A stretch of DNA of 64,000 bases, from the NCBI GenBank assembly GCA_964423795.1, contig CAYRGC010000004.1, forward strand, positions 1,032 through 65,031, in the 5' to 3' direction. This document shows, piece by piece, positions 10,288 to 49,674 of this stretch. The DNA is from an uncultured Candidatus Peribacteria bacterium (lineage in GTDB: Bacteria > Patescibacteriota > Gracilibacteria > Peribacterales > Peribacteraceae). The notes under the pieces are model-generated. The model had not been told where the DNA came from, searched no databases, and saw only the letters and a list, made by a program, of their open reading frames with translations. The position numbers and the translations under genes were made by a program. Positions within the stretch are counted from its first letter, which is position 1. Each line of letters begins with the position of its first letter.

Positions 10288-12093
10288 TCACTCCCACTCG
10301 ATCGTCCCCGGCGGTTTGTTCGTGAGATCAAGGAACACGAGGTCGATGCCCGGGATGCTCCGGATCTCCTCCGTCATGCGCGCGAGGGTCTGTTGCGGCA
10401 AGACGAAGGCATTGGCCGTCATGGCGTCCGTGGAACTGATGGGCCGCAGCACGACCGACTGGCCCCCCTTCCCCGTGCCGAACGGCACGAGCACGACGGG
10501 GAACTGCCAGATCGCGTCGCCGAGGCCGTCCTCGCGCATGACGCGCTGCGCCCTGTCGTCGGCTTCGCGCAAAAGGTCGGCGCGCCCGCGCGTGAGGTAT
10601 CCGGGACTGAAGACGAGTGACGGGACGTCGGAACGCGACGTGCAGAGCAGCACCCGGCTGATCTCGCGGTCGCGGTTCGGGATCTCGGTCGCGAGCTTGA
10701 GGTGCTCCGGCGTGACCGTCGACGGATCCTTCGCGAAGAGCGCCACGGCGTGACGGTACGTGCGGCCGTCGCCCTGCACGCCCACGGACTTCACCGGGAG
10801 GATGAGGGAATTGCTGATTGCTGATTGCTGATTCGAAGAATCGAACGGTTTCTCCGCGCAGAGGATACGGACGCCCAATCCCGGACCCGGGAAAGGATGG
10901 CGCCACACGAGCTCGCGCGGGAGACCCAGCTCCTCGCCGAGCGTGCGGACCTCGTCCTTGTAGAGCTCCTTGAGCGGCTCGATCACGAGCCCCTTCTCGA
11001 TGAGCTTCTGGATCATATCGACGCGGTTATGGTGCGTCTTGATATGGTCGGCGTGCTTGGTGCCGCCCGTCTCGATCGTGTCGGGGTAGATCGTGCCCTG
11101 GCCGAGCAGCCAGCCGTCTTCGATCCGGAGATTCATCTCCTCGCTCACGCGCTTCTGCACGGCGAGGAACGTGTCGCCGATCACCTTGCGTTTGGCTTCG
11201 GGCTCGTACACGCCGTCCAGATTGCCGAAGAACTCGTTGGACGCGTCCTCGATCCGGAGATTCTTGATGCCGAGCCGGTCGAACGCGTCGCGAAGAAGCG
11301 ACACCTCGTTCTTCCGCATCAACCCCGTGTCGACCAGGAGACCTTGCACGCGCTCGGGGCCGAGCACCTCGTTGAGCAGCGTGAAGGCGACGGTGGAATC
11401 GACGCCGCCGGAGACGAGCATGAAGACCTTCCGGTCCCCCACCTCCTTCTTCACCTGGCCGCCGATGTGTTCGGCGAAGCTGTCGATGCTCCAGGGAGCG
11501 TGGTCGCAGAGCTTCACGAAGTTCTCGAGGATCGTCATGCCGCCCTCCGTGTGCGTGACCTCGATATGGAACTGGATGCCGAAGATCTTCTTCTCGGGAT
11601 TCGCCATCGCGGCGACGAGCCCGTTCTCCGACGTGAGCGTTTGGATGAATCCCTGCGGTAGCGTCGTGACGGCGTCCCCGTGCGACATCCACGTGGTAAA
11701 CGAGGGAGGCAACGAGGAGAGAACATCCACCGGCACCTTTCGAACCTCTTTCCCCTCTTGAACCTTTCGAACCTCCGTCGGTCCGTACTCCTTCACCGTC
11801 CCGGGCTTCACCTCGCCGCCGAGCGCGTGCGCGAGCCACTGGTGCCCGTAACACAGGCCCAGCACCGGCACGCCGAGATCGAAAATCCCCGGATCGGCCT
11901 GCGGGCTGCCTTTCTCGTACACGCTCTGGGGGCCTCCCGAGAGGATGATGCCCGCGGCGCCCTTGAGCTCCTTCGCCGGCGTCTCCGGGACGCGGATCTC
12001 GGAATAGGCGCCGAGGCGGCGGACGCGGTTCCCGATGAGGTGCGCGTACTGTCCGCCGAAATCGAGGATGACGATGCTTCCGGGGTGGAGCAT
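10288..12093 (-). CDS. guaA: GMP synthase (glutamine-hydrolysing)
   Basis: 601 aa from ATG 12093. It has the GATase motif LGLCYGHQ, the PP-loop SGGVDST and the C-terminal KPPGTIEWE. Two repeat-encoded segments are listed separately. Confidence 0.95.
   Translation of the reverse strand: MLHPGSIVILDFGGQYAHLIGNRVRRLGAYSEIRVPETPAKELKGAAGIILSGGPQSVYEKGSPQADPGIFDLGVPVLGLCYGHQWLAHALGGEVKPGTVKEYGPTEVRKVQEGKEVRKVPVDVLSSLPPSFTTWMSHGDAVTTLPQGFIQTLTSENGLVAAMANPEKKIFGIQFHIEVTHTEGGMTILENFVKLCDHAPWSIDSFAEHIGGQVKKEVGDRKVFMLVSGGVDSTVAFTLLNEVLGPERVQGLLVDTGLMRKNEVSLLRDAFDRLGIKNLRIEDASNEFFGNLDGVYEPEAKRKVIGDTFLAVQKRVSEEMNLRIEDGWLLGQGTIYPDTIETGGTKHADHIKTHHNRVDMIQKLIEKGLVIEPLKELYKDEVRTLGEELGLPRELVWRHPFPGPGLGVRILCAEKPFDSSNQQSAISNSLILPVKSVGVQGDGRTYRHAVALFAKDPSTVTPEHLKLATEIPNRDREISRVLLCTSRSDVPSLVFSPGYLTRGRADLLREADDRAQRVMREDGLGDAIWQFPVVLVPFGTGKGGQSVVLRPISSTDAMTANAFVLPQQTLARMTEEIRSIPGIDLVFLDLTNKPPGTIEWE
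10811..10838. repeat. TTGCTGA heptamer x3 (+ TTCGAAG) inside guaA
   Basis: ttgctga ttgctga ttgctga ttcgaag on the + strand. It encodes SSNQQSAISNS just upstream of the conserved LPVKSVGVQGD motif. Confidence 0.85.
11736..11775. repeat. 9-nt periodic repeat inside guaA (EVRKV ... EVRKV)
   Basis: cctttcgaacctc occurs at 11736-11748 and 11763-11775, a period of 27 nt. The mRNA sense reads TTCGAAAGG TTCAAGAGG GGAAAGAGG TTCGAAAGG and encodes EVRKVQEGKEVRKV. Confidence 0.85.
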
Positions 12094-12165
12094 GCGACTA
12101 CAATAGCGAAAACTGCTCCTTCGCGCTGGAGCGAATTCCCGACATTCGCTACAGTCCCGCACCCC

Positions 12166-13048: not shown

Positions 13049-14524
13049 TTACGGCACCGCCGCCGCAAGCAGCCACAGGCTCATGGCCACGGACGCGTCC
13101 TCCCAGCTGTGGAGGAAGAGCCCCGCGATACTCACGCCGAGAAAGGCAAAGAAGACGGCCGGCGCGATCGATCCCGCGACTCGCAACCCGTCACTCGCAA
13201 CGTTTTGCAGCTTCCAAACCATCAACCCCGTCACCGCGATCCAGAGCAGCATCCCCACGATCCCCGCCTCGACGCCGATCTGCAGGTACCAGTTCTCCGG
13301 GAGAAAAGGGCATCGACACGGAACGGGCTTGTCCTGAACCGAGTCGAGGGGCTGCACTTGTGTGCCGCCCACGAAGACGCAGAGCTCCGGACGGTCCTTC
13401 GCCCAGGCGGCGTCGCTGCCCGCGGGAAGCTCCACGCACGCGTCGTTCACGCGGTTGCTTGCCGGACCCGCGGCGCCCAGGCCGGAACCGATGGGGTTTT
13501 TCGCGATGTGCGCGACGGCCGCGAGCGGCTTCTCGATGTGCCCGCGATTGCTCACGCTTCGCAGGACCGCCTGCGGGAAGAGCGTGAACAAGATCGCGGC
13601 GAAGATCGCGAGGAACACGGCGACGATCCAGGCAACCGTCCTACGCAGACTCTTTGGGACGTAGATCCAGAGCGCGAGTGCGCCAATCACAGTCGCAGCG
13701 ACCCACGCCGATCGTGAAAAACTGAGGACGATTCCGAGCGTAAGTACGGAGAGTGCGTACTTCTCGACCTTGCGGTCTTGGGCGCTCGTGAGTTTCCGCA
13801 AGAACGTCGTCAGGACGATCGACCACGGCAAGAGGAGCCAGAGACCAAATTGGTTGGGGCCACTGAGCGTTCCCTGCATCCGACGCAACGCCGAACCGCC
13901 GAGCTGCTGGAAGGCGGCGAGCGGCGCCTCGGGCACGTAGAGCGAGTGGAGATCGGAGTAGCCGAGCGCGCGATAGACTGCGTCGGGCAAAACGTAGATC
14001 CCCAGGCCCAGAATCGTCACGATTGCCCCGGCAACGACAAGAACTTTCGCTGCGGTCTGCCGGAACTCACCCGACCACGGGACGCGGCGCAGGACGAGGA
14101 ACGCGAGCGGCGCGAGGAGGTCGTAGCGGAAGCCGTACAGCGTCGCGGAGAGCGGGAGCGATGCGGTGAGCGAGATCGCGAGCGCAACGATCGCGAAGAG
14201 GCCGATCGCGACGTCGAGGAGATCGAATGGGGATTTGAGGTTTGGGGTTTGGGGTTTGTTCCGGAAAATCTCGACAAAGGCGAGCGCGACGATGACGACG
14301 AGCAGCCCCTCCTTCCACAGCGCGAGCGCACCGAGCGGCGCATGGTCCGGTCCCAGGATCACCTTCGTCGCGACCGTGATCAAAAGCGCATGGAACGGAA
14401 GGAGCGCGAGGAGGACGAGGGCCAGGGATTCCCGGAGTTTCTGGAGCACCGCGGAAGTGTACGACAGAAGGGCAGCATGGCAGAAGGGCATGCCTTCTGC
14501 TTTCTTGCCCTGCGCCTTCTGCAT
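13049..14524 (-). CDS. O-antigen ligase-like (Wzy_C family) integral membrane protein
   Basis: Many TM segments and a Wzy_C-like loop (LSFSRSAWVAATVIGALALW). The start could be the internal Met near 14491. Confidence 0.7.
   Translation of the reverse strand: MQKAQGKKAEGMPFCHAALLSYTSAVLQKLRESLALVLLALLPFHALLITVATKVILGPDHAPLGALALWKEGLLVVIVALAFVEIFRNKPQTPNLKSPFDLLDVAIGLFAIVALAISLTASLPLSATLYGFRYDLLAPLAFLVLRRVPWSGEFRQTAAKVLVVAGAIVTILGLGIYVLPDAVYRALGYSDLHSLYVPEAPLAAFQQLGGSALRRMQGTLSGPNQFGLWLLLPWSIVLTTFLRKLTSAQDRKVEKYALSVLTLGIVLSFSRSAWVAATVIGALALWIYVPKSLRRTVAWIVAVFLAIFAAILFTLFPQAVLRSVSNRGHIEKPLAAVAHIAKNPIGSGLGAAGPASNRVNDACVELPAGSDAAWAKDRPELCVFVGGTQVQPLDSVQDKPVPCRCPFLPENWYLQIGVEAGIVGMLLWIAVTGLMVWKLQNVASDGLRVAGSIAPAVFFAFLGVSIAGLFLHSWEDASVAMSLWLLAAAVP
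14232..14259. repeat. GGTTTGG heptamer array inside the O-antigen-ligase-like gene
   Basis: GATTTGA GGTTTGG GGTTTGG GGTTTGT. It encodes NKPQTPNLKSP in a predicted loop. Confidence 0.85.
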
Positions 14525-22127: not shown

Positions 22128-23915
22128 TCAGAGGTCGCGGAAGTGGGACACGAGTTCGTCGACGAAGAACGGCCGGCCGTCGTACTTGAGGATCTTCTCC
22201 TCGATCCGAAGTCCGCCTTCCTGCGCGATGAGCGTGCCGAGCTGTCCCGTGAAGTTGCCCTCGACGAGGACGACCTTCTTCGCGGTCCGCGCGAGCGCGA
22301 GGAGGCGCTCGGTCTTGAGGGGCCAGAGGTAGGAGAAGTGGAGATATCCGTTACGAGTTACGGGTTTCGGGTTACGGGAACATTCACGAAGAGCGTCGAG
22401 AACCGGGCCTTTTGTTGATCCCCACCCGATGAGAAGCACATCAAGCTCCGGATTTTTTCCCGTAACTCGTAACTCGGAACCCGTAACCGTCCAAAGTTCC
22501 GGCTCCGGCAGCGCCTTCTTCAAGGCGACCTGCTTGCTCATCCGTTTCTCCATCTGCGCCTTCGCGTTGTCGGCGTGCTCGTTCACGGAGCCGTCGCCGC
22601 CGTGTTCGTCGCCCTGGGCGTTCCAGGTGGCGGGCGCCTCGGTGCCGGGCAGCCAGCGCGGGGAGATGCCGTCCTTGGCGGCGGGATCGAAGCGGTCGGA
22701 GGCCTTGAGCTTCTGGATCTTCTTCGGATCGGTGACGAGAAGACCGCGCTTGAGCTCCGTCTTGGACTGGTCGAACTGGGGCTCGGTGTAGAGCGCCTCG
22801 GCAATCTGCTTGTCCGTGAGGACGATCACGGAGATCTGGTACTCCTCCGCCAGGTTGAATGCCACGGGCATCAACCGGAAGGCGTCCTCGGCGTTGCTCA
22901 CGCCGATCACGCACCGCGCGAACTCGCCGTGGGCGCCGTGGACCGCGAGGAGAAGATCGCCCTGCGCCGTCCACGTGGGAAGGCCCGTGGCGGGCCCCGG
23001 GCGCTGCGCGAGGACGAAGACCGTCGGGTTCTCGATGATCGCGTTGAGGGAGAGCGTCTCGGTCATGAGGTCGAAGCCGCCGCCGGAGGTGCCGGTAAGG
23101 GCGCGCGTACCCATGTGCATGGCGCCGCTCACCATCTGCGCCGCGGTGATCTCGTCCTCCGCCTGCTTCACGACCATCCCGGTCTTGTTCTGCAGGTCGG
23201 CGATGAAGGAGAGCAGCGGCGAGGACGGCGTCATCGGGTATCCGGCGTAGAAACGCACGCCCGCGTGGATCGCGCCGAGGCCCATGGCCTCGCTGCCCGT
23301 GAGGAGCATCGAGTCCTTCCACGTCTTCACCGGCTTCGGAAGCTCGACCGTGACCTTGCCGAGCGCGGGATCCTCGTACGCGTAGCCCTTCTCCACGCAC
23401 TGTAGGTTGGCCTCGAGGAGATCCTTCTTCTTCGCGAAGCGCTCGCCGACGAGGCTCTTTAGGGCCTCCTTCTCCTGGCCGAGGACCGACCACAGGAACC
23501 CCGTGAGGAGCACGTTTCCCAGGATGGACTTGGCACCCATCTCCTTGAGGATCTTCTCCACCGGCATCTTGATCACGCGGAGCTTCTTCTTCGCGAGGAG
23601 CGCCTGGTCGTCCGCCGAGAACTTCCAGTCCTCGACGAAGTGCACGATCACGCCGCCATCCTTAAGGTCATGCAGGTTGAGCTCGAGACCGTGGTGGTTG
23701 TACGTGAGCAGCACATCGACCTGGGTCTCGCTGCTCTCGATGCGCTCGTCGGAGACGTCGAGCTGATAGCTCGTGTGTCCGCCCTTGATGAGGGACGGAT
23801 ACTCGCGATAGCCAAACACGCAGTAGCCCGCGCGCTTCAGCCCCTTGGCCACGATCTCGCCGATCGAGTTGATGCCTTGCCCGGCTGCGCCGACGACTTT
23901 AAGGGAGATACGCAT
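22128..23915 (-). CDS. 2-oxoacid:ferredoxin oxidoreductase, alpha subunit (gamma-type domain fused at N-terminus)
   Basis: 595 aa. The N-terminus is AGQGINSIGEIVAKGL, followed by the pyrimidine-binding domain (YAGYPMTPSS) and LLIGWGSTKGPV. It lies 2 nt upstream of the beta subunit. Confidence 0.9.
   Translation of the reverse strand: MRISLKVVGAAGQGINSIGEIVAKGLKRAGYCVFGYREYPSLIKGGHTSYQLDVSDERIESSETQVDVLLTYNHHGLELNLHDLKDGGVIVHFVEDWKFSADDQALLAKKKLRVIKMPVEKILKEMGAKSILGNVLLTGFLWSVLGQEKEALKSLVGERFAKKKDLLEANLQCVEKGYAYEDPALGKVTVELPKPVKTWKDSMLLTGSEAMGLGAIHAGVRFYAGYPMTPSSPLLSFIADLQNKTGMVVKQAEDEITAAQMVSGAMHMGTRALTGTSGGGFDLMTETLSLNAIIENPTVFVLAQRPGPATGLPTWTAQGDLLLAVHGAHGEFARCVIGVSNAEDAFRLMPVAFNLAEEYQISVIVLTDKQIAEALYTEPQFDQSKTELKRGLLVTDPKKIQKLKASDRFDPAAKDGISPRWLPGTEAPATWNAQGDEHGGDGSVNEHADNAKAQMEKRMSKQVALKKALPEPELWTVTGSELRVTGKNPELDVLLIGWGSTKGPVLDALRECSRNPKPVTRNGYLHFSYLWPLKTERLLALARTAKKVVLVEGNFTGQLGTLIAQEGGLRIEEKILKYDGRPFFVDELVSHFRDL
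22350..22378. repeat. GTTACGG-family heptamer arm A inside korA-like gene
   Basis: gttacgagttacgggtttcgggttacggg, which encodes ...NPKPVTRNG. Confidence 0.85.
22459..22489. repeat. GTTACGG-family heptamer arm B (complement of arm A) inside korA-like gene
   Basis: cccgtaactcgtaactcggaacccgtaaccg, which encodes TVTGSELRVTG. It lies 80 nt from arm A. Confidence 0.85.
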
Positions 23916-29265: not shown

Positions 29266-29326
29266 GGTTTCGGGTTGCGGGTGTCGGGTTGCGAGAACCC
29301 CGCAACTCGCAACCCGTAACTCGCAA
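29266..29326. repeat. foldback of heptamers, GGTTGCG/GTTACGG family
   Basis: Arm 1 is GGTTTCG GGTTGCG GGTGTCG GGTTGCG, the loop is agaacc, and arm 2 is CCGCAAC TCGCAAC CCGTAAC TCGCAAC. It lies between the infC stop and rpmI. Confidence 0.85.
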
Positions 29327-29869
29327 CTACGACTTTTTTGGCCTCAGGATCGCAATAAACTGATCCCCCTGGCGCTTGATGTCCTGCTCCAGCTCCGAGA
29401 CGTCGGCGAGCGAGAGGAGGAGGTTTTTCATCTTCTCGATGGCATAGTCTTTGTTCGCGAGCTCGCGGCCGCGGAGGCGGACCATGAACTTCACGAGGTG
29501 GCGCTCCGTGAAGAACTCGCGGGCGCGGTCGGCCAGGCGGTCGATGTCGTGCTTGTCCGTGCGGAAGCCGAACTTGAGGATCTTCACTTCCACCTGCTTG
29601 CTCCCCGCCTTCTGCTTCCGCTCCTTCTTCTGGATCTGATAGAGGTACTTTCCCACGTCGTCGATCTTCACGACGGGCGGCTGCGCCTTCGGCGACACCT
29701 CGATGAGGTCGAATCCCTGGGACTGCGCGAGCGCGATGGCTTCCGCGGTCGGCATCACGCGCGTGCCCTGCTCCGTGACGAGCATCACTTCCGGCACGCG
29801 GATCTGGTCGTTCGTGCGGGGACGCTTCTCGTCGACGCGGTTGGGGCGGTAATGGTGTCGCTGACGCAG
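29327..29869 (-). CDS. infC: translation initiation factor IF-3 (5' end uncertain, non-canonical start likely)
   Basis: The first canonical start (GTG 29797) would cut off the conserved N-terminal motif. The frame is open back to TAG 29894-29896 and reads ..LRQRHHYRPNRVDEKRPRTNDQIRVPEVMLVTEQG. No ATG, GTG or TTG lies in that stretch, and CTG 29869 is one candidate start. Confidence 0.8.
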   Translation of the reverse strand: MRQRHHYRPNRVDEKRPRTNDQIRVPEVMLVTEQGTRVMPTAEAIALAQSQGFDLIEVSPKAQPPVVKIDDVGKYLYQIQKKERKQKAGSKQVEVKILKFGFRTDKHDIDRLADRAREFFTERHLVKFMVRLRGRELANKDYAIEKMKNLLLSLADVSELEQDIKRQGDQFIAILRPKKS

Positions 29870-30870: not shown

Positions 30871-31487
30871 GGGAGGGTGAGGGTCAGGGAGAACGGCGAG
30901 TGCGGGCCCGTGACGGCATCGTCCTCACGGAGGAAGGTCGGCGTGGACACGGAGGCGAAGGCGGGGTCCGCGCGGAGATTCTCCACGAACTCGGCGAGCA
31001 CCGTCATGCTGCGGCTGCCGACGAAGCGCACGTCCCCTTCCGCGGCCACGACCTTCTTCTCGACGTCGTAGCTGAGCGCGGAAACGTGGATCGCGTCCTG
31101 CTGGGTCACGGTCTTCTTGGCGATGTCCTGCAGGCGGACCTTGAGTTCGGGAAGCGAGAGACGCGCCTCCCGCGCGGCCTTGAGCGCAAGATACTGCGGC
31201 TGATGGATCGCGAGCGTGAGATCCTCTCGACGGCGCTCGGCGGCCAGAATCTCCTGGCTGAGGTCGCTGCGGCGCTCCTGGAGCTCGGCATAGCCCAGGA
31301 CGCTTCCCACGACTTCCACCCGCGTGAGGCGAGGCACCAGGAAGAACCACGACAGCGCGAGCAGGCCAAAGAGCAAAGTGGAGAACAAGAAGAACGGCAG
31401 CGCGACGCGCCGGAGGATCGTCGCGGCCGACGCGCGGGGCGCGGGGGTGAGCCCGGCGGTAACGAAGGTGATTTCGGTATTTGTCAT
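30867..31487 (-). CDS. membrane-anchored coiled-coil protein (PilN-like topology), hypothetical
   Basis: Short cytoplasmic N-terminus, one TM segment (FFLFSTLLFGLLALSWFFLV), a coiled coil and a C-terminal beta-rich domain ending FSLTLTLP. Confidence 0.45.
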   Translation of the reverse strand: MTNTEITFVTAGLTPAPRASAATILRRVALPFFLFSTLLFGLLALSWFFLVPRLTRVEVVGSVLGYAELQERRSDLSQEILAAERRREDLTLAIHQPQYLALKAAREARLSLPELKVRLQDIAKKTVTQQDAIHVSALSYDVEKKVVAAEGDVRFVGSRSMTVLAEFVENLRADPAFASVSTPTFLREDDAVTGPHSPFSLTLTLP

Positions 31488-31556
31488 GTTTTCTCCATAG
31501 TATAGCGGAAATCCTCGGGAAAAGGAAGGGTAGGAAGTACCTGTTTGAAGCCAGAG

Positions 31557-31670
31557 CTGAGGAGGTTTGAGGTGATGAGGTTATGAGCGCATGAGGTTTT
31601 GAGGTTCTGAGGTTTTGAGCTTCGATCTCTCAAGCTCAGAACGTCATACGCTTATAACCTCAGAACCTCT
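31557..31670. repeat. about 115-nt foldback of octamer repeats (GGTTNTGA family)
   Basis: Arm 1 is GGTTTGA GGTGATGA GGTTATGA GCGCATGA GGTTTTGA GGTTCTGA GGTTTTGA GCTT, the loop is cgatctctc, and arm 2 is AAGC TCAGAACG TCATACGC TTATAACC TCAGAACC TC. Confidence 0.85.
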
Positions 31671-31738: not shown

Positions 31739-32831
31739 GTGGAGGAACTGCTCCGCAAACTCACCGACCTGCAGTCCGCCGTCAATACGGGCAAGGACTC
31801 TCTTTGAGGGAAAGAAGATTCCAGAACAGATCAAAGACCTCGAAGCGCAAACCCAGGACCCGAACGTCTGGAGCGACCAGCAGAAGGCTCAGGGCCTTTT
31901 TTCCAAGCTGAAAGGCCTGAAGAAGCAATGGGAGCCGATCGCGGCGATGGCGCAGTCGGTGGCCGACACGATCGAGTTCGTGAAGATGGCCGGACCGAGC
32001 GATCTCCCGGGTCTGGAGAATGACGCGCTGAAGCTGGAGGAAGAATGGAAGGGTCTCGAGACGCAGCTCTACCTCGGCGGCGAATTCGACACGAACAACT
32101 GCTTCGTCACGATCTCCGGCGGAGCCGGCGGCACCGAGGCGCAGGACTGGGCCGCCATCCTCATGCGCATGTACCTGCGGTACTGCGAGCGCCAGGGATG
32201 GAAAACGACGCTCGTCGAAAAGACCGATGGCCAAGAGGCCGGCATCAAATCCGCGACGTTCCTCGTCGCGGGCGAGATGGCGTACGGCAACCTCAAGTGC
32301 GAGAAAGGCACGCACCGCCTGGTGCGCATCTCCCCCTTCGGGGCCAAGGCGCTGCGTCAAACCAGCTTCGCGCTCGTCGAAGTGCTGCCGGAAGTGACGG
32401 AGACCAAGGAGATCGAGATCAACCCCAACGATTTACGCATCGATACCTTCCGCTCCGGCGGCGCCGGCGGGCAGAACGTGAACAAGGTGGAGTCCGCCAT
32501 CCGCATCACGCACATCCCGACGAACATCGTCGTCGCGTGCCAGACGGAACGGTCGCAGCTCCAGAACCGCGCCCAGGCCATGAACATCCTCCGCGCCAAG
32601 CTCCTCGAGAAGAAGCGCGAGGAAGAACTGGCGCAGAAAAAAGAGCTGAAGGGCGCGTCGCAGAGCGCGGACTTCGGCCAGCAGATCAGGAGCTACGTGC
32701 TCCACCCCTACCAGATGGTGAAGGACCTCCGCACGAACGCGGAGACGGGAAACACGTCTGCCGTCCTCGACGGCGACCTGCAGCTCTTCATCGACGCGGA
32801 GCTGAAGCGGCAGGCCCGAGAAGGAGAATGA
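31739..32831 (+). CDS. prfB: peptide chain release factor 2, requires programmed +1 frameshift: join(31739..31804,31806..32831)
   Basis: Frame 0 runs GTG 31739 VEELLRKLTDLQSAVNTGKDSL then TGA (31805-31807). The +1 frame continues EGKKIPEQIKDLEAQTQDPNVWSDQQKAQ... into the 294-aa track ORF. The SPF (RISPFGA) and GGQ (GGAGGQNVNK) motifs are present. Confidence 0.9.
31793..31807 (+). promoter_or_regulatory. RF2 autoregulatory +1 frameshift site (CTT TGA G) with upstream AAGGA
   Basis: The sequence is aaggac tct CTT TGA ggg, which has the same CUU UGA slippery/stop arrangement as the canonical prfB site. Confidence 0.85.
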
Positions 32832-37329: not shown

Positions 37330-38272
37330 GAAATTTCTTGCCGTAGGCGGCCTCCGCCCGGGCGGACACCTCATCCAGATCGAGCGCGTCCAGCAGCGTC
37401 CCCTCCTTCTCCACGACGAACGACGCCACCGAGGCGCCGAGTTTGCACGCGTCCTCGACCGTCCACCCCGCGGACAGTCCGGCCAAAAGCCCCGCGCGCA
37501 GCGCGTCTCCCGCGCCCGTGGGATTCACGACGGTATCCGCCTTGCATGCCGGCAGCACGCGTTCGCCCCCGCGGGTGAAGAGCGCGAGACCGTCCCCGCC
37601 GTGCGTGACGATGAGGTACTCGGCGTGTTCGAGCACGCCGTCCACGGACACGCCGGCGCGCTCGGAGAGCAGGCTCCACTCGTACGCGTTGCAAAGAACG
37701 CCCTTGCTCGCGCGGATGCCGGCGAGGAGCTCGTCCTTCGAAAGGCCGATGATCACCTGTCCCGGATCGAAGAGCAGCGGCACCTTCCACTTCGCACACC
37801 AGCGGACGGCCTCCGTCATGAGGACGGGATTGCGCGCGCCCACAAGCGCGTACGCGAGGTCCTCGCGCTCGTCCTGCAGCGCCGCGCCGGGCCACGACCC
37901 GTGCGCGTCCGCGCCGGGGTGGAAGAACGCGATCTGCCGCGAACCGTTGTCGGTGCCGATGATGGCGGTCGCGGTAACGTAGGCATCGAGCTGTTCCAGG
38001 TACGTCGTGTCCACGCCCCGCTCCGCGAGAAGCGCCTTGTACTCGCCGCCGTCCTTCCCCACAGTGGAAACGAGCATCGGGGAAGCGCCGAGCAGCCGGA
38101 GCGTCCACGCGATGTTCGCCCCAGTACCGCCGTGGTGGCGCGCGTAGAACGGACTGAAGAAGGAGACCGAGAGCGACTTGATGGCCTTGGGATCGATGGC
38201 GTCCGCGAAGGAGCCGCCGTAGCCGAGGAGGATATCGTAGGCGGTGGAGCCGGTGACGAGGATGTTCTTCAT
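37319..38272 (-). CDS. PfkB-family carbohydrate/adenosine kinase
   Basis: 317 aa from ATG 38272, with GGTGANIA and the C-terminal DTVVNPTGAGDALRAG motif. Position upstream of ahcY suggests an adenosine kinase role. Confidence 0.8.
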   Translation of the reverse strand: MKNILVTGSTAYDILLGYGGSFADAIDPKAIKSLSVSFFSPFYARHHGGTGANIAWTLRLLGASPMLVSTVGKDGGEYKALLAERGVDTTYLEQLDAYVTATAIIGTDNGSRQIAFFHPGADAHGSWPGAALQDEREDLAYALVGARNPVLMTEAVRWCAKWKVPLLFDPGQVIIGLSKDELLAGIRASKGVLCNAYEWSLLSERAGVSVDGVLEHAEYLIVTHGGDGLALFTRGGERVLPACKADTVVNPTGAGDALRAGLLAGLSAGWTVEDACKLGASVASFVVEKEGTLLDALDLDEVSARAEAAYGKKFPRL

Positions 38273-38311
38273 GGAGACAGTGTGGGAGGAAGCTTCCCCA
38301 AGCTCAAGCAA

Positions 38312-38399
38312 GTTTGTAGTTGGTAGTTTGTAGAAGTGGCAGTATCTGGAATTTTTAGGAGAACTTGTACTAAAAACTATCAACTAAACACTAAAAACT
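38312..38399. repeat. heptamer arrays GTTTGTA / ACTAAAA in divergent spacer
   Basis: gtttgta gttggta gtttgta g lies at 38312-38333 and tactaaa aactatc aactaaa cactaaa aactc lies at 38366-38399. Confidence 0.7.
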
Positions 38400-38437
38400 C
38401 CCCTGACAGAACAGCGAACTCCCCGTAAACTCCGAAC

Positions 38438-39820
38438 GTGAAAATCGCCATTGTTGGTACCGGCTACGTCGGCCTCGTCTCAGCGGCCTGCTTCGCGGAG
38501 CTGGGGCATACCGTCATCGGCGTGGACATCGACCCGAAGAAGATCGAGAAGCTCAAGAGGGGCGAAAGCACCATCTTCGAGCCGGGTCTCGAGGAGCTCA
38601 TCAAGAAGGGGCTCAAGACGAAGCTGCTGAGCTTCACGACCGACCTCGTCGAGGCGCTTCCCCAGGTGAGCGTGGTGTTCTCTGCGGTGGCGACCCCGCC
38701 GGGCGAGGGATTCAAGGCCGATCTCCGTGCGGTGTTCACCGTCGCGGAAACCGTGGCGAAGCACGCGGAGAAGCCGGTGGTCTTCGTGAATAAGTCCACG
38801 GTGCCCGTCGGCACGGGAAAGCAGTGCGAGGAGCGGATGGCCAAGATCCTCGCGGACCGGAAGAAGGACTTCTCGATCCCCGTCGTGAGCAACCCCGAGT
38901 TCCTGCGCGAGGGCCTCGCGGTGAATGACACTCTGATGCCGGATCGGATCGTCGTCGGGATAAATGAGACAGAAAGTCATCGGTCATCAGTCATGAGTCA
39001 TGGGGATGAAGATGCTCAAGACTCAAGACTCACGACTCACGACCCGCTCGATTCGAGAAAACTCATGCAAGACCTTTACGCTCCCATCACTCGCGTCGGG
39101 AAACCCCTCGTCTTCATGAGCCGCGAGAGCGCGGAGATCGTGAAGTACGCCAGCAACGCCTTCCTCGCGACGAAGATCAGCTTCATCAACATGCTCACGG
39201 AGTTCGCGGAGATCACGGGAGCCAACATCCGCGACGTCGCCCGCGGCATGGGCCTCGATAACCGCATCGGTCCGCGCTTTCTCCACGCCGGCATCGGCTA
39301 CGGCGGCAGCTGCTTCCCGAAGGACGTGAAGGCGCTCCTCGCGACCGCGAAGGATCACGGACTCAGCTTCGACATCGTGGAGGCCACCGATCGCATCAAC
39401 GCGCGCCAGCGCCAGCGTTTCTTCGAGAAGATCCTGAAGGCGCTCCCGAAAAAGGCCAAGGTCGCCGTGTGGGGGCTCTCCTTCAAGCCGAAAACCGACG
39501 ACATGCGCGAGGCGCCGAGCTTGGATCTGCTCCCGATGCTCGTCGACGCCGGGCACGCCGTGACGGCCTTCGACCCCGAGGCGATGACGGTGGCGCGGCC
39601 GCTCGTGCCCAAAGAGGTGGCGTTCGCCGAGTCCCCGATGGAGGCCGCCAAGGGCGCCGAAGCGCTCGTGCTCCTCACCGAGTGGGACGTCTTCCGCGGA
39701 GCGGACCTGGCAGAGCTCAAGGCGGCGATGAAGGGGGTCGACCTCTTCGACGGACGCAACGTGTATGAGCCGAAGGACGTGGAGAAGGCGGGGTTGAGGT
39801 ATCGGGGGATCGGGATCTAG
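38438..39820 (+). CDS. ugd: UDP-glucose 6-dehydrogenase (with about 26-aa repeat-encoded insertion)
   Basis: 460 aa with MKIAIVGTGYVGLV, GGSCFPKDV and other family motifs. The insertion is described under repeat 38976-39043. Confidence 0.9.
   Translation: MKIAIVGTGYVGLVSAACFAELGHTVIGVDIDPKKIEKLKRGESTIFEPGLEELIKKGLKTKLLSFTTDLVEALPQVSVVFSAVATPPGEGFKADLRAVFTVAETVAKHAEKPVVFVNKSTVPVGTGKQCEERMAKILADRKKDFSIPVVSNPEFLREGLAVNDTLMPDRIVVGINETESHRSSVMSHGDEDAQDSRLTTHDPLDSRKLMQDLYAPITRVGKPLVFMSRESAEIVKYASNAFLATKISFINMLTEFAEITGANIRDVARGMGLDNRIGPRFLHAGIGYGGSCFPKDVKALLATAKDHGLSFDIVEATDRINARQRQRFFEKILKALPKKAKVAVWGLSFKPKTDDMREAPSLDLLPMLVDAGHAVTAFDPEAMTVARPLVPKEVAFAESPMEAAKGAEALVLLTEWDVFRGADLAELKAAMKGVDLFDGRNVYEPKDVEKAGLRYRGIGI
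38976..39043. repeat. AGTC-family heptamer foldback inserted in-frame in ugd
   Basis: Arm 1 is GTCATCG GTCATCA GTCATGA GTCATGG, the loop is ggatgaagatg, and arm 2 is CTCAAGA CTCAAGA CTCACGA CTCACGAC. It encodes ..SHRSSVMSHGDEDAQDSRLTTHD.. Confidence 0.9.
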
Positions 39821-39850
39821 TCGTGAGTCACAAGTCCTGAGTCTTGAGTA
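39819..39850. repeat. left terminal inverted repeat (AGTCNNN heptamers) of the four-helix-bundle cassette
   Basis: AGTCGTG AGTCACA AGTCCTG AGTCTTG AGTA, starting inside the ugd stop codon. Confidence 0.85.
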
Positions 39851-39879
39851 TTTTGCCCGAGGGAGTAGGCTGAAAAGCT

Positions 39880-40248
39880 ATGCTTCATATGTCTTTTGAG
39901 AAGCTAAAGGTCTGGCAGAGAGCGATGCAACTTGTGACCTTCATCTACGAAATTACGGCGAAATTTCCTCGCGAAGAGATATATGGTCTCACGTCCCAGA
40001 TGCGAAGAGCAGCTGTGTCTGTTCCCTCGAATATTGCCGAGGGAAGTCAACGAACGTCAAATCGTGATTTTGCGAATTTCATCCTGATAGCCAAAGGATC
40101 ATTGGCAGAGCTTCAGACTCAAATCACTATTGCGAAGCAACAGTCATTTTTCGATGCGAAGGAATATGGAAAAATACGGGATGAAATGGAGGAAATAAGT
40201 AAGATGCTCTACGCTTTCCATCATCAATTACTCACTCACAAGTCTTGA
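39880..40248 (+). CDS. four-helix-bundle protein, 23S rRNA intervening-sequence protein family
   Basis: 122 aa with hallmarks FEKLKVWQRAMQL, EIYGLTSQMRRAAVSVPSNIAEG and F..IAKGSLAELQTQ. GC is visibly low. Confidence 0.85.
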   Translation: MLHMSFEKLKVWQRAMQLVTFIYEITAKFPREEIYGLTSQMRRAAVSVPSNIAEGSQRTSNRDFANFILIAKGSLAELQTQITIAKQQSFFDAKEYGKIRDEMEEISKMLYAFHHQLLTHKS

Positions 40249-40277
40249 CTGAAGACTCGTGACTTACGACTCACGAC
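40231..40277. repeat. right terminal inverted repeat of the four-helix-bundle cassette
   Basis: The reverse complement reads AGTCGTG AGTCGTA AGTCACG AGTCTTC AGTCAAG ACTTGTG. It ends 1 nt before the epimerase ATG. Confidence 0.85.
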
Positions 40278-40278
40278 T

Positions 40279-41226
40279 ATGAAGGTCTTCCTCACCGGCT
40301 GCGCCGGATTCATCGGGTTCCACACCGCGAACCGCCTGCTCGATCGCGGCGACGAAGTGGTGGGTCTCGACAACATGAGCCCCTACTACGACCCCAAGCT
40401 GAAGGAGGCGCGTCTCGCGATGCTCCAGAAGCGCAAGGGCTTCACCTTCACCAAGGGCGACATCCTCGACCGCAAGACGATCCGCGAGTGCATGCGCGGC
40501 TGCGACCGCGTGTGCCACCTCGCGGCGCTCGCCGGCGTGCGGTATTCGTTTGAGCATCCGGAGGAGTACATCGCGATCAACATCGACGGCTTCTTCGAGA
40601 TGATCGACGAGGCGAGGCTTCAGAAGATCCCCGGCTTCATCTACGCCTCCTCGAGTTCCGTCTACGGCGGCAACACGAAGTTCCCGCAGCACGAGGACGA
40701 CCGCACGGACGATCAAGTGTCGCTCTACGGACAGAACAAGAAGGACAACGAGCTCATGGCGCACATCTACCATAAGCTCTACGGAATCCCCGTCACGGGC
40801 CTGCGCTTCTTCACGGTCTACGGCCCGTGGGGCCGCCCGGACATGGCGCTCTTCCTCTTCACGGACGCGATCCTCAAGGACAAGCCCATCAAGGTCTTCG
40901 GCCACGGCAAGATGCAGCGCGACTTCACGTACGTGGACGACATCGTGTCCGGCGTGGTCGCGTCCATCGACAAGAACTACCCGGAGGAGATCTTCAACCT
41001 CGGCGCCGGCCACACGGAAGAGCTCCTGGATTACATCGGCATGATCGAGAAGACCGTCGGCAAGGAGGCCACGAAGGAATTGCTCCCCATGCAGCCCGGA
41101 GACACGGTCCGCAGCGAGCCGGACATCTCGAAGGCGAAGAAGATGCTCGGCTACGCCCCGAAAACGACGATCAAAGAAGGCGTCCCCAAGTTCGTGGAGT
41201 GGTATAGGGAATACCACGGTCTCTGA
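40279..41226 (+). CDS. NAD-dependent epimerase, UDP-glucuronate 4-epimerase-like
   Basis: 315 aa with VFLTGCAGFIGFH and YGQNKKDNE (YxxxK). The N-terminal pattern is typical of CapI/LpsL-type enzymes, and ugd is the neighbour. Confidence 0.8.
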   Translation: MKVFLTGCAGFIGFHTANRLLDRGDEVVGLDNMSPYYDPKLKEARLAMLQKRKGFTFTKGDILDRKTIRECMRGCDRVCHLAALAGVRYSFEHPEEYIAINIDGFFEMIDEARLQKIPGFIYASSSSVYGGNTKFPQHEDDRTDDQVSLYGQNKKDNELMAHIYHKLYGIPVTGLRFFTVYGPWGRPDMALFLFTDAILKDKPIKVFGHGKMQRDFTYVDDIVSGVVASIDKNYPEEIFNLGAGHTEELLDYIGMIEKTVGKEATKELLPMQPGDTVRSEPDISKAKKMLGYAPKTTIKEGVPKFVEWYREYHGL

Positions 41227-47803: not shown

Positions 47804-47927
47804 CGATTTCTTCTTCTCCTCGTGATACTCCCCCTTCGAGATTCACCCGGCTTCGCTCGGCGGAGCTTCGCCAAGGTGAGACTCAGGACGATTTTTTCTC
47901 CTCGTGATATTCGCCTTCCAGATTCAC
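47804..47927. repeat. duplication of the FAD-oxidoreductase 3' end around a GC-rich mini-element
   Basis: cgatttcttcttctcctcgtgatactcccccttcgagattcac lies at 47804-47846. cgattttttctcctcgtgatattcgccttccagattcac lies at 47889-47927. Confidence 0.85.
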
Positions 47928-49598
47928 GTCCCAGAGGTTCGCCTTGTCCGTGCGGCCGGCGACGATGTTGTCCACCGCGAGCATGGAGGTGAGCATGCTG
48001 TGATCCTGGTTGTTGTAGCGGTGCATGCCGTTGCGTCCCACGAGGAACATGTTCGGGACCGCGTCCGCGTACTCGCGCACCACCGGCAACTGCGCGTAGC
48101 TGCCGAAGTAGGCGGGATACGCCTTGGGCATGCGCAGCACGCAGGCGTCGACGAGATCGCGGCGGTCGATGAACCCGATCGCCTCCATCTCCTTGGTGCC
48201 GAGCTCGATGAGCTTCTCGTCGGGCATCACCCAGAGGTCGCCTCCTTCGTTCACGAAGTACTCGAGCCCGATCCACACCGAGTTCGCGCGGTCCGCGACC
48301 ATGTACGGGCTCCAGTTGTTGAAGATCTGGATGCGTCCGACGCGCACGCCGCCGTCCTGGACGTAGATCCAGTTGTCGGGAACGGCGGTCGCCGGCGCCA
48401 CGCCCTTCTCCTGGACGTGGAGCTTCTTGAGCAGGAGACCCACCGTGAGGAAATCGCGGTACTGCAGGCCCTCGGCCACCTCGATGACCCGCTCGGGCGG
48501 ACGCGGGTGGATCATGCCGACGAGGTGCTTCACCGGCATGGTGGAGAAGAAGTAGTCGCACGCGACTTCCTCGGACTTCCCCGTCTTCATATCTTCGACC
48601 GTGACGGCGACGACCTTGCCGCCCTCGAGCCGCACGCCGCTCACGCGACGTTCCCACGTGATCTCTCCCCCGCACGCGCGGACGCGCTCCGCGACGGTCT
48701 CCCACATCTGGCCGGGGCCGAACTTGGGGTAGAAGAAGCGGGTGATGAGGCTGGTCTCGCGCTCCTCCTGCGCCTTCTTGAAGTCGCTGCTGAGGAGGTC
48801 TTTCACCGCGTGGATCACGGCGCGCTTGAGCGAGAGGCCCTTGATGCGCTGGGCGCCCCAGTCGGCGCGCACCTCGCTGCATGCCACGCCCCACACCTTC
48901 TCCGTGTAATCCTTGAAGAACGTGCGATACAGACGGTCGCCGAAGCGGTTGATGAAGAACTGATCCAGGAATTCCTCCTGCTTGATGGGGAAAAGCTGGG
49001 CCTTGATGTAGCTGCAACCGATGAGGAAGGTATTGAGGAGGCCGAGCTTGCGCGCCACCGTGAGGGTGATGCCGATCGGGTACGGAAAGAAGTGCCGGCG
49101 GTAATAGATGCGGCTCAGGCGGGGCCGCTGCAGCATGACGCCGTCTTCCTTCTCGGGGTCGGGGGCTTTCCGTTTCACCCTGACAACGGACGAGGCCTGA
49201 GTCTTGAGCTCTGAATCACGAGAAGCTTCCTTCCCATCACCCACGACTTGCGACTCACGACTTCCCTGAGAGACGCAATCGCGGCACAGGAACTCCACGA
49301 TGACCTCGGCGGCGTAGTCGATCTCGTGTTGCTTCTCGGCGGTGTCCGCCGCGGGGCTCCCCTGCAACGGAAGGACCGAGAACCACCAATCCATCACGCG
49401 AGTACTCTTGCTGAAGAAACGGTGTCCGCCGATGTCGATGCGGTTCCCCTTGTAGTTGAAGGTCTGCGCGATGCCGCCCGTGGCGGTGGTCGCTTCGAAG
49501 ACGACGGGCCTGATGTCCGTGCGTTTGAGGAGCTCGTAGGCCGCGGTGAGGCCCGCAGGACCCGCACCGGCGATGACGGCGATCTTCGGAGAGCTCAT
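47883..49598 (-). CDS. FAD/NAD(P)-binding oxidoreductase (amine-oxidase / UDP-galactopyranose-mutase-like superfamily)
   Basis: 571 aa from ATG 49598, with the dinucleotide fold [19 protein letters not shown]. It lies downstream of gmd on the same strand. Confidence 0.75.
49196..49264. repeat. AGTC-family heptamer foldback inserted in-frame in the FAD oxidoreductase gene
   Basis: Arm 1 is CCTGAGT CTTGAGC TCTGAAT CACGAG, the loop is aagcttccttcccatcacc, and arm 2 is CACGACT TGCGACT CACGACT TCC. It encodes ..[26 protein letters not shown].. Confidence 0.85.
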
Positions 49599-49674
49599 GT
49601 CTGGCGCAGGGTACCCGAGCGCCGGGAAAAGCAAAAACGAAGGCCGGCGCGCCGCATCATCGCTTCGCGCGACG

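Follow-up and report, generated by a model that had tools for sequence, protein, structure and literature searches.

The question raised by this locus is what kind of element a foldback of tandem heptamers, lying in frame within the gene of a conserved enzyme, represents. The gene is ugd, which codes for UDP-glucose 6-dehydrogenase (Ugd), in a stretch of 64,000 nucleotides (nt) from an uncultured Candidatus Peribacteria bacterium; this whole stretch is the window referred to below, and all coordinates count from its first letter as position 1. An earlier note had read the segment as a one-off palindromic insertion comparable to the Rickettsia palindromic elements (RPEs). Our analysis indicates instead, with a probability of about 0.7, that it is a translated in-frame insertion of a heptamer-array foldback devoid of an open reading frame (ORF), and a member of a family of cassettes similar to the intervening sequences (IVSs) of ribosomal RNA (rRNA).

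The foldback of ugd and its translation

The pattern proposed at first for the segment, (GTCATNN)x4, a loop and (CTCANGA)x4, agreed with the sequence itself and with Tandem Repeats Finder, which detected both arms as period-7 arrays (Table 1). As had been described, the arms are imperfect reverse complements: an inverted-repeat search returned arms of 32 nt with 72% complementarity and a 21-nt core at 81%, and within each arm the four units differ mutually by one or two bases. The foldback measures 67 nt (28-nt arms plus the 11-nt loop), and the extra coding sequence about 78-87 nt. The CTCGAY motif of the 3' junction was also seen in locus L002 (L and P numbers designate homologous DNA loci and proteins, respectively). 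As RNA, the foldback had a predicted folding energy of -30.4 kcal/mol, with z = -2.45.

All three UDPG_MGDP_dh domains were found by Pfam in the window Ugd (PF03721, residues 1-181; PF00984, residues 230-322; PF03720, residues 343-445), and the family-invariant residues are all retained, including the catalytic cysteine C292 of GGSCFPKD. The spacing from RIVVG to LY amounts to 38 residues, compared to 12-13 in insert-free Peribacteria homologues, which bears out the earlier estimate of about 26 additional residues. Residues 177-205 have no counterpart in the structures 4a7p and 2y0e of the Protein Data Bank (PDB), which hold three and six residues at this place. The best 120 homologues came from Peregrinibacteria/Peribacteraceae, of the Candidate Phyla Radiation (CPR), with a basic protein length of 435-436 amino acids (aa), and the insert is also missing at this site from the more distant Peregrinibacteria loci L025 and L027. 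Furthermore, the GC content at third codon positions (GC3) was 0.41 in the insert and 0.89 in the rest of ugd, where every other 29-codon stretch reached at least 0.62. Therefore, the insert is not old native coding sequence. At the level of sequence comparison, the segment is confirmed as a genuine in-frame insertion relative to the outgroup and to insert-free Ugd.

That the segment could be an ancestral or functional loop of the protein, or else an assembly artefact, is scarcely credible. An ancestral loop would fit a site that is common to many Peribacteria, but the inserts found there show no conservation of amino acids, the outgroups lack them, the GC3 is foreign and the segment is predicted to be disordered, and on these grounds this option was discarded. 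As for an artefact, a Logan contig from a wastewater metagenome (2410 nt, depth 12) matched positions 38438-39142 with 0 differences, and equivalent inserts were present in more than ten independent metagenome-assembled genomes or metagenome contigs. This check rests on Logan contigs, that is, on assembled sequence; as the contig is independent and identical, an artefact of one assembler is excluded. An intein, an intron or a programmed bypass was also rejected, given a size of 29 residues, the lack of the motifs of such elements and the constraint on frame and stop codons described next.

The Ugd loci were found by tblastn, independently of gene calling, and the frame was kept across the site in every Peribacteria locus read (sets of 23, 10 and 5 loci). 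All the long inserts (13/13) had a length divisible by three. On the sense strand these 13 inserts contain 25 stop trinucleotides, none of them in frame (P ~4e-5), and on the antisense strand 41, distributed in all frames.

A 7-nt unit passes through all three reading frames over three copies, and both GTCATGA and its exact complement GACTCAT would yield an in-frame TGA. In arm 1, the sole unit that would put TGA in frame reads TCA; in arm 2, where GACTCAT would bring a TGA into each of the three frames, all units carry A or C instead of its T. The same removal of stops was observed in L081 (TAG to CAG) and L083 (TGA to TCA), so that in the window and in these two loci the unit that deviates is precisely that in which the consensus would create an in-frame stop. 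The arms are imperfect because the units that place TGA in frame have mutated. On the antisense strand of the insert the A-C mismatches turn into G-U pairs, which accounts for its better folding compared to the sense strand in L015, L081, L084 and the window. The absence of stops noted at first thus holds throughout a single unbroken ORF, and these sequence patterns confirm that the segment is kept translatable and indicate that it is read through as an extra peptide. The tryptic peptides predicted from it are SSVMSHGDEDAQDSR and LTTHDPLDSR.

An AlphaFold2 model of the window Ugd, built with a 102-sequence alignment, had a mean predicted local distance difference test score (pLDDT) of 86 and template modelling (TM) scores of 0.86-0.89 to 2y0e, 3gg2 and 4a7p, as in a normal UDP-glucose dehydrogenase fold. 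Only residues 183-201, between the strand 171-174 and the helix 206-213, had a pLDDT below 50. The insert is therefore predicted to form a disordered loop that links the final strand of the NAD domain to the helix after it. The mapping onto known Ugd structures and the model coincide on this location, and the earlier note had anticipated a surface loop.

The better folding of the antisense strand could also be a sign of a selected function at the RNA level, such as an RNase III site, a stability element, a pause for co-translational folding or an antisense structured RNA. Many lineages have foldbacks at this same domain boundary, many of those at the Ugd site are strongly structured (z from -4 to -8), and in rRNA IVSs RNase III acts on stems of about 28 bp (PMC4990558). 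However, about half of the close relatives are insert-free and others carry inserts that are not hairpins, the sense hairpin is degraded here by A-C mismatches that are explained by the removal of stop codons, and cleavage within the ORF would destroy the message. In addition, an Rfam search of 38200-40400 at permissive thresholds gave no match, and a scan for terminators and promoters found nothing inside the insert. We consider such a function quite improbable.

A phase-variation locus was also considered, in which the gain or loss of one heptamer would shift the frame (7 mod 3 = 1) and switch Ugd together with the surface glycans that depend on UDP-glucuronate. The surface-polysaccharide neighbourhood of ugd (epimerases, glycosyltransferases and GtrA) and the variable unit number of a related array in Kaiserbacteria would agree with this proposal. 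Nevertheless, it is very improbable, as the differences of one or two bases among the units of each arm suppress slippage, all the Peribacteria loci examined, including the 13 with long inserts, are in frame with no OFF allele among them, and like elements lie in housekeeping genes (oxidoreductase, guaA-like and FAD oxidase-like).

Recurrence at the Ugd turn and families of heptamers

In the alignment of 120 homologues, recurrent length variation was restricted to this turn, with extra residues in 60 of the proteins, 35 of which carry between 8 and 41. These residues are mutually unrelated and of low complexity, often with a periodicity of seven. At the DNA level, heptamer arrays or foldbacks were detected at the Ugd site in at least 12 of the loci examined, with a different unit in each. 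The foldback units were CGACGAG in L001, CGGCGAG in L084, TGGACAG in L002, GATGGCA in L003, AGCCACT in L015, GCTATGA/CTCACAG in L081, GCGGTCA/GCTGACA in L083, GTTNCGA/CTCGNGA in L090 and GGNAATC in L094, and single, unpaired arrays were found in L022 and L089. As unrelated inserts occupy the site in about half of the Peribacteria homologues, the insertion in ugd is not a single event and the idea of a one-off was not upheld. On the aligned sequences, this turn of Ugd is a hot spot, or is hypervariable, throughout the lineage.

The distribution of insert states over a neighbour-joining tree of Ugd, which is poorly resolved, was near random, with 26 Fitch parsimony changes compared to 30 after shuffling. 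Recurrent gains and one old insertion followed by turnover and many losses fit this test alike, and it cannot separate them.

A different, GC-rich palindromic repeat was observed in the same turn in L004, L008, L019, L082 and L086, with DNA like TTCGACAGGCTCA...CAGGC, and also in the proteins P0005, P0022, P0038, P0042 and P0108. Its peptides (STGSPQAG, STSSGQAG, QPFEALxxxG and FDSAQDKP) come from different frames. Therefore, at least two unrelated repeat classes use the site.

Arrays of period 7 with at least three copies numbered 12 in the window, compared to 0.35 in dinucleotide shuffles (about 30-fold), and periods 8-12 showed no enrichment of that degree. Their density was about 1.4 per 10 kb in Peribacteria loci and about 0.25 in the other taxa fetched. 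When the window was searched for the unit family with the pattern GACTCAN x3, allowing up to three mismatches, 10 matches were obtained compared to 0.02 expected, confined to the ugd arms, 39824-39850, 40247-40280 and about 49198. Two families recur, GTCNTGA at four loci of the window and GTTACGG at three.

The match near 49198 belongs to a second in-frame foldback of the same type, in a gene similar to FAD/amine oxidases. It reads GTCGTGA GTCGCAA GTCGTGG GTGATGG, loop, (TCTCGTGA) TTCAGAG CTCAAGA CTCAGGC, and codes for 24 residues. The orthologous site is hypervariable in relatives: the unit of L083 is identical to that of its own ugd insert, that of L010 is its own intergenic unit, L001 carries CCGCAAC, of the same family as the foldback at 29266-29328 of the window, and L005 is insert-free. 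Units were also common to several sites each in L010 and L022. Hence, sites are common to different genomes, and units are common to different sites of one genome. Such a pattern, not predicted by purely local slippage, suggests that the copies within a genome are copied from or converted by one another.

Slippage is central to another explanation, according to which the segment would be a purely local microsatellite, grown by 7-nt slippage in a hypervariable Ugd loop, with the second arm made by intrastrand template switching and without any mobile or copied element. The units at the Ugd site are indeed different in every genome, insert states are scattered almost at random over the Ugd tree, two near-identical contigs differ by two units in one array, and a perfect array bearing TGA is not insertable in one step. 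Heptanucleotides are also the most abundant class of long simple sequence repeats in many prokaryotes, with slippage as the proposed origin (Mrazek 2007, as cited in PMC4679880). Against this, one unit family occupies four places of the window (ugd, the oxidase gene and both flanks of the gene described in the next section), units are common to several sites within L083, L010 and L022, and inverted pairs with arms of four or five units are common to cassettes in unrelated loci and in another phylum. Purely local growth, which does not predict genome-specific units at distant sites, is thus unlikely, and the copied-element reading was retained.

Three further genes of the window contain heptamer arrays in frame. 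In that for the alpha subunit of a 2-oxoacid:ferredoxin oxidoreductase, two complementary arms lie 80 nt apart, on either side of the conserved DVLLIGWGSTKGPVLDAL; with PDB 6n2n as the reference, about 10 residues are gained at one arm, and the other replaces about eight native residues and brings in three more. The remaining two are single arrays, in a guaA-like and an O-antigen-ligase-like gene (Table 1).

In contigs from unrelated activated-sludge and groundwater metagenomes (X2 and X4), arm 2 of the ugd foldback was covered alone, with depths of 45 and 178, and arm 1 with zero (bins 39002-39048). Therefore, CTCANGA arrays exist in other organisms of those communities.

Cassettes with a PF05635 gene

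The unit family of the ugd foldback recurs about 780 nt downstream, where a gene of the family PF05635 (23S_rRNA_IVP, hereafter IVP) sits as the 'loop' between two inverted heptamer arrays of 31 and 35 nt. The right array ends 1 nt short of the ATG (40279) of an epimerase gene. In L085 the epimerase gene directly follows ugd, without an IVP gene in between, and in L022 the spacer between ugd and the epimerase gene has an ORF-less foldback at the place of the IVP cassette of the window. In the spacer between pfkB and ugd, in turn, the window, L001 and L084 have a foldback without an ORF, and L005, L008 and L022 an IVP cassette. Thus, each of these two intergenic positions is filled in some genomes and empty in others.

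Inverted period-7 arrays were present on both flanks of eight of the nine IVP genes of the CPR loci examined, and for 8/9 the complementarity of the flanks reached or exceeded the 99th percentile of 623 control ORFs. Four of these loci were found independently of ugd (rpsR-IVP-yebC, dnaN-IVP-mfd, a low-GC Peregrinibacteria locus and a Kaiserbacteria locus with conjugation genes), and in all four the gene was bracketed by inverted heptamer arrays that abut the neighbouring genes. One of the Kaiserbacteria arrays had two units (14 nt) fewer than in near-identical contigs.

Many close IVP homologues were found on very short contigs (500-2000 nt), as expected if multi-copy cassettes flanked by hairpins break short-read assemblies.

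Outside the CPR, weak IVP-like ORFs lie directly upstream of ugd in two Bacteroidia loci, L069 (9564-9965) and L158 (2541-2942). They are flanked by AT-rich period-7 arrays of the TAATTAG/TTAACTA type, similar to the TAACTGA-type repeats of Bacteroidetes. The link between IVP genes and heptamers may extend beyond the CPR.

From these observations the following sequence of events can be proposed. Heptamer foldbacks would be a class of dispersed elements found throughout Peribacteria and in other bacteria of the CPR. When filled, they are small cassettes with a PF05635 gene in the loop, and the inverted arrays make up the termini, of about 28-35 nt; as the ugd insert combines such a stem with a loop of only 11 nt, it is read as an ORF-less member of this IVS-like class. 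The copy in ugd would lie at the only site of the protein that tolerates it, where the PDRIVVG strand turns towards the helix before LYxP, and its translation would add about 26 residues as a disordered loop at the surface. It would then have been shaped by selection acting on the host ORF, with its length kept a multiple of three and the units with an in-frame TGA mutated, which accounts for the weaker hairpin of the sense strand compared to the antisense strand. We infer that the ugd copy arose from the cassette family by copying or conversion, with the arrays downstream as one potential source, rather than by growth de novo, and that the arrays turn over by slippage or gene conversion. The element in ugd would be a tolerated passenger and not a functional module, and the insert itself is probably neutral.

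Several points weigh against this proposal. No convincing target-site duplication was seen at the ugd insert: AGAAA (5 nt) lies on both sides (38971-38975 and 39055-39059), which is indistinguishable from chance. No transposase was linked to the arrays; the single gene linked to them, PF05635, is not known to be a transposase, and its proteins are without known function (PMC4990558, PMC11270868). The association between arrays and IVP genes is strong and yet not exclusive, as in L022 arrays also bracket ordinary genes. A perfect GTCATGA array, with TGA in all frames, could not have landed in the ORF in one step, as it would kill the gene; this speaks for an incoming copy that was degenerate beforehand, or for growth or conversion in steps under selection. 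Simple insertion in one piece does not explain the split arms of the oxidoreductase alpha gene. No RNA runs containing the window ugd were found. Finally, records gave no exact match to the window Ugd protein, and in scans of metagenomes and genomes no relative exceeded about 78% Ugd identity (87% over the best aligned segment). Hence, although related genomes without an insert do exist, as the earlier note had suggested looking for, there is no empty-site allele of this insertion by which to date it.

In L022 (3322-8816), AGCTCAA/TTGAGCT arrays punctuate successive genes (IVP, ugd, the epimerase gene and beyond), so that each cistron is bracketed. This arrangement recalls the RNase III stems around 16S and 23S rRNA.

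Table 1. Positions in the window of ugd, its foldback, the neighbouring cassette and other heptamer arrays.
Feature	Position	Strand	Remarks
ugd, UDP-glucose 6-dehydrogenase	38438-39820	+	host gene of the insert; single unbroken 460-aa ORF
Extra coding segment, residues 177-205 (ETESHRSSVMSHGDEDAQDSRLTTHDPLD)	38966-39052	+	net ~23-26 residues above insert-free Ugd
Foldback arm 1: GTCATCG GTCATCA GTCATGA GTCATGG	38976-39003	+	four GTCNTGA-type heptamers
Foldback loop GGATGAAGATG	39004-39014	+	11 nt
Foldback arm 2: CTCAAGA CTCAAGA CTCACGA CTCACGA	39015-39042	+	four TCANGAC-type heptamers; imperfect reverse complement of arm 1
Small palindrome CTCGATTCGAG	39047-39057	+	codes LDSR; 3' junction of insert
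Left terminal array of cassette: GTCGTGA GTCACAA GTCCTGA GTCTTGA GTA	39820-39850	+	arm-1 family; first base is last base of ugd stop codon
PF05635 (23S_rRNA_IVP) gene, four-helix bundle, S23p	39880-40248	+	122 aa; GC 0.43; Pfam E = 1.8e-41
Right terminal array of cassette: TCTTGAC TGAAGAC TCGTGAC TTACGAC TCACGAC	40243-40277	+	arm-2 family; overlaps IVP stop codon
ORF-less foldback, pfkB-ugd spacer: (AGTTTGT)x3, 35-nt spacer, (ACTAAAN)x4	38311-38399	.	
Intergenic near-perfect foldbacks, GTTACGG/GTTGCGG family	1725-1776 and 29266-29328		
Single array (CAGCAAT)x3.4, guaA-like gene 10288-12162 (-)	10808-10835		in frame; gives SNQQSAISNS
Single array (AACCCCA)x4, O-antigen-ligase-like gene 13049-14524 (-)	14232-14260		in frame; gives NKPQTPNLKS
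(GTTACGN)x4 / (CGTAACN)x4, 2-oxoacid:ferredoxin oxidoreductase alpha gene 22128-23915 (-)	22350-22378 and 22459-22487		in frame
GTCNTGA/CTCANGA foldback, FAD/amine-oxidase-like gene 47883-49634 (-)	49195-49265 (about)	-	in frame

Known repeat elements and other arrays of the window

RPEs insert in frame into unrelated functional genes and are read through at structurally tolerant positions (PMC10969869). The ugd element shares this behaviour, as it belongs to a dispersed palindromic family that lies in frame at tolerant positions in ugd and in the FAD oxidase-like gene, and probably also in the oxidoreductase alpha, guaA-like and O-antigen-ligase-like genes. RPEs, however, are about 150 bp long, form ten families of conserved sequence and encode a conserved peptide, whereas the ugd element consists of 67 nt of 7-nt units in a CPR bacterium, and the inserts of 13 genomes share neither DNA nor peptide. 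Therefore, the comparison made in the earlier note stands for the palindromic, dispersed and in-frame nature of the element and for the existence of a second in-frame copy, whereas no conserved consensus of about 100-150 bp or peptide was found: the element resembles RPEs in behaviour and is not a member of that family.

As the heptamer family brackets the neighbouring PF05635 gene, the closest architectural relative of the ugd element is the rRNA IVS and not the RPE. In IVSs, terminal inverted repeats pair into a stem of about 28 bp that carries an S23p ORF in its loop; RNase III excises these sequences, and mobility has long been suspected for them (PMC4990558). In CPR bacteria they occur with and without an ORF at the same rRNA sites (PMC11270868). 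As in the IVSs of Leptospira, Coxiella and the CPR, the elements described here have a terminal-repeat stem of about 28 bp, contain a PF05635 ORF or none and occupy sites where the continuity of the host is dispensable. The ugd insert has the stem and lacks the ORF, which is present in the adjacent cassette. Unlike IVSs, which lie in rRNA helices, the cassettes lie between protein genes, the ORF-less form is translated inside ORFs, and the stems are tandem heptamer arrays.

In the literature searched, stems made of heptamer arrays are not described for IVSs, heptamer arrays are nowhere linked to PF05635 genes, and inserts of this kind are not reported for Peribacteria.

Known heptanucleotide repeats comprise the short tandemly repeated repetitive (STRR) sequences of cyanobacteria, TAACTGA of Beggiatoaceae, Cyanobacteria and Bacteroidetes, and GGGNATC of Xanthomonas and Nostoc (PMC4679880, PMC4692102). 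The arrays of the window share with them head-to-tail 7-nt units, typically in three to six copies, over-representation, dispersal of the same unit over several loci, a mostly intergenic location often abutting start or stop codons, 'forward' arrays with stops in all three frames and occasional copies in ORFs; the unit GGNAATC of L094 can be likened to GGGNATC. The known repeats are direct arrays with one fixed unit per lineage and have their ORF copies mainly at protein termini, whereas here the arrays form inverted pairs of genome-specific units, lie in the middle of enzymes and bracket IVP genes. In these four respects, namely inverted pairing, genome-specific units, mid-protein sites and IVP association, the arrays depart from the known repeats. 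The units of the window also appear to differ from the consensus units of cyanobacterial STRR sequences.

The repeats inside ORFs of Borgs are reportedly direct, with unit lengths divisible by three, compared to which the unit here has 7 nt, each copy is read in a different frame and the arrays form inverted pairs. What both have in common is the addition of disordered, hydrophilic segments to otherwise conserved proteins by tandem repeats, which in Borgs are fast-evolving, lie within ORFs and create intrinsically disordered regions (PMC9879509). Miniature inverted-repeat transposable elements have terminal inverted repeats, a target-site duplication, many near-identical copies and a cognate autonomous element with a transposase; the copies in the window were 71-86% alike by manual comparison, with inverted arms and with flanks that share only AGAAA. 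Nor do the imperfect units correspond to the near-perfect tracts of phase-variable loci.

The function of the IVP protein and the origin of IVS elements have been open for about 30 years (PMC4990558), and an element class that includes the ugd insert bears on the unresolved nature of both IVSs and S23p proteins. Hairpins that share their stems with PF05635 cassettes offer a concrete lead on both. It is conceivable, though doubtful, that heptamer foldbacks with or without a PF05635 gene are one unrecognised class of selfish or gene-converting elements across the CPR. The class might also account for the still unexplained heptanucleotide repeats seen in cyanobacteria, Bacteroidetes and Beggiatoaceae, with the classical IVSs of 23S rRNA as the special case within rRNA. 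In such a scheme, a pentameric IVP protein would recognise the four or five heptamers of the stem and promote their copying, resulting in genome-specific units at fixed permissive sites, including the interiors of conserved enzymes. Mobility or conversion is made testable by the filled and empty sites, the genome-specific units shared between loci and the copy-number polymorphism.

In-frame palindromic colonisation of conserved enzymes, treated so far as a peculiarity of Rickettsia, now appears in the CPR with a structurally different element. In addition, hypervariable low-complexity loops in marker proteins, together with hairpin-flanked genes on short contigs, affect the alignment, annotation and assembly of CPR sequences.

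Three further features of the arrays in the window were observed. The unit TGGGGTT of the array at 14232-14260 has a telomere-like or G-quadruplex-prone look. The foldback at 29266-29328 is followed by a run of T (TACGACTTTTTTGG) and resembles an intrinsic terminator made of heptamers. The sole long array not composed of heptamers has a period of 8/16 (GAGGTTAT x7.4) and is located at 31554-31622, within a spacer of 460 nt between genes that end at 31487 and start at 31947.

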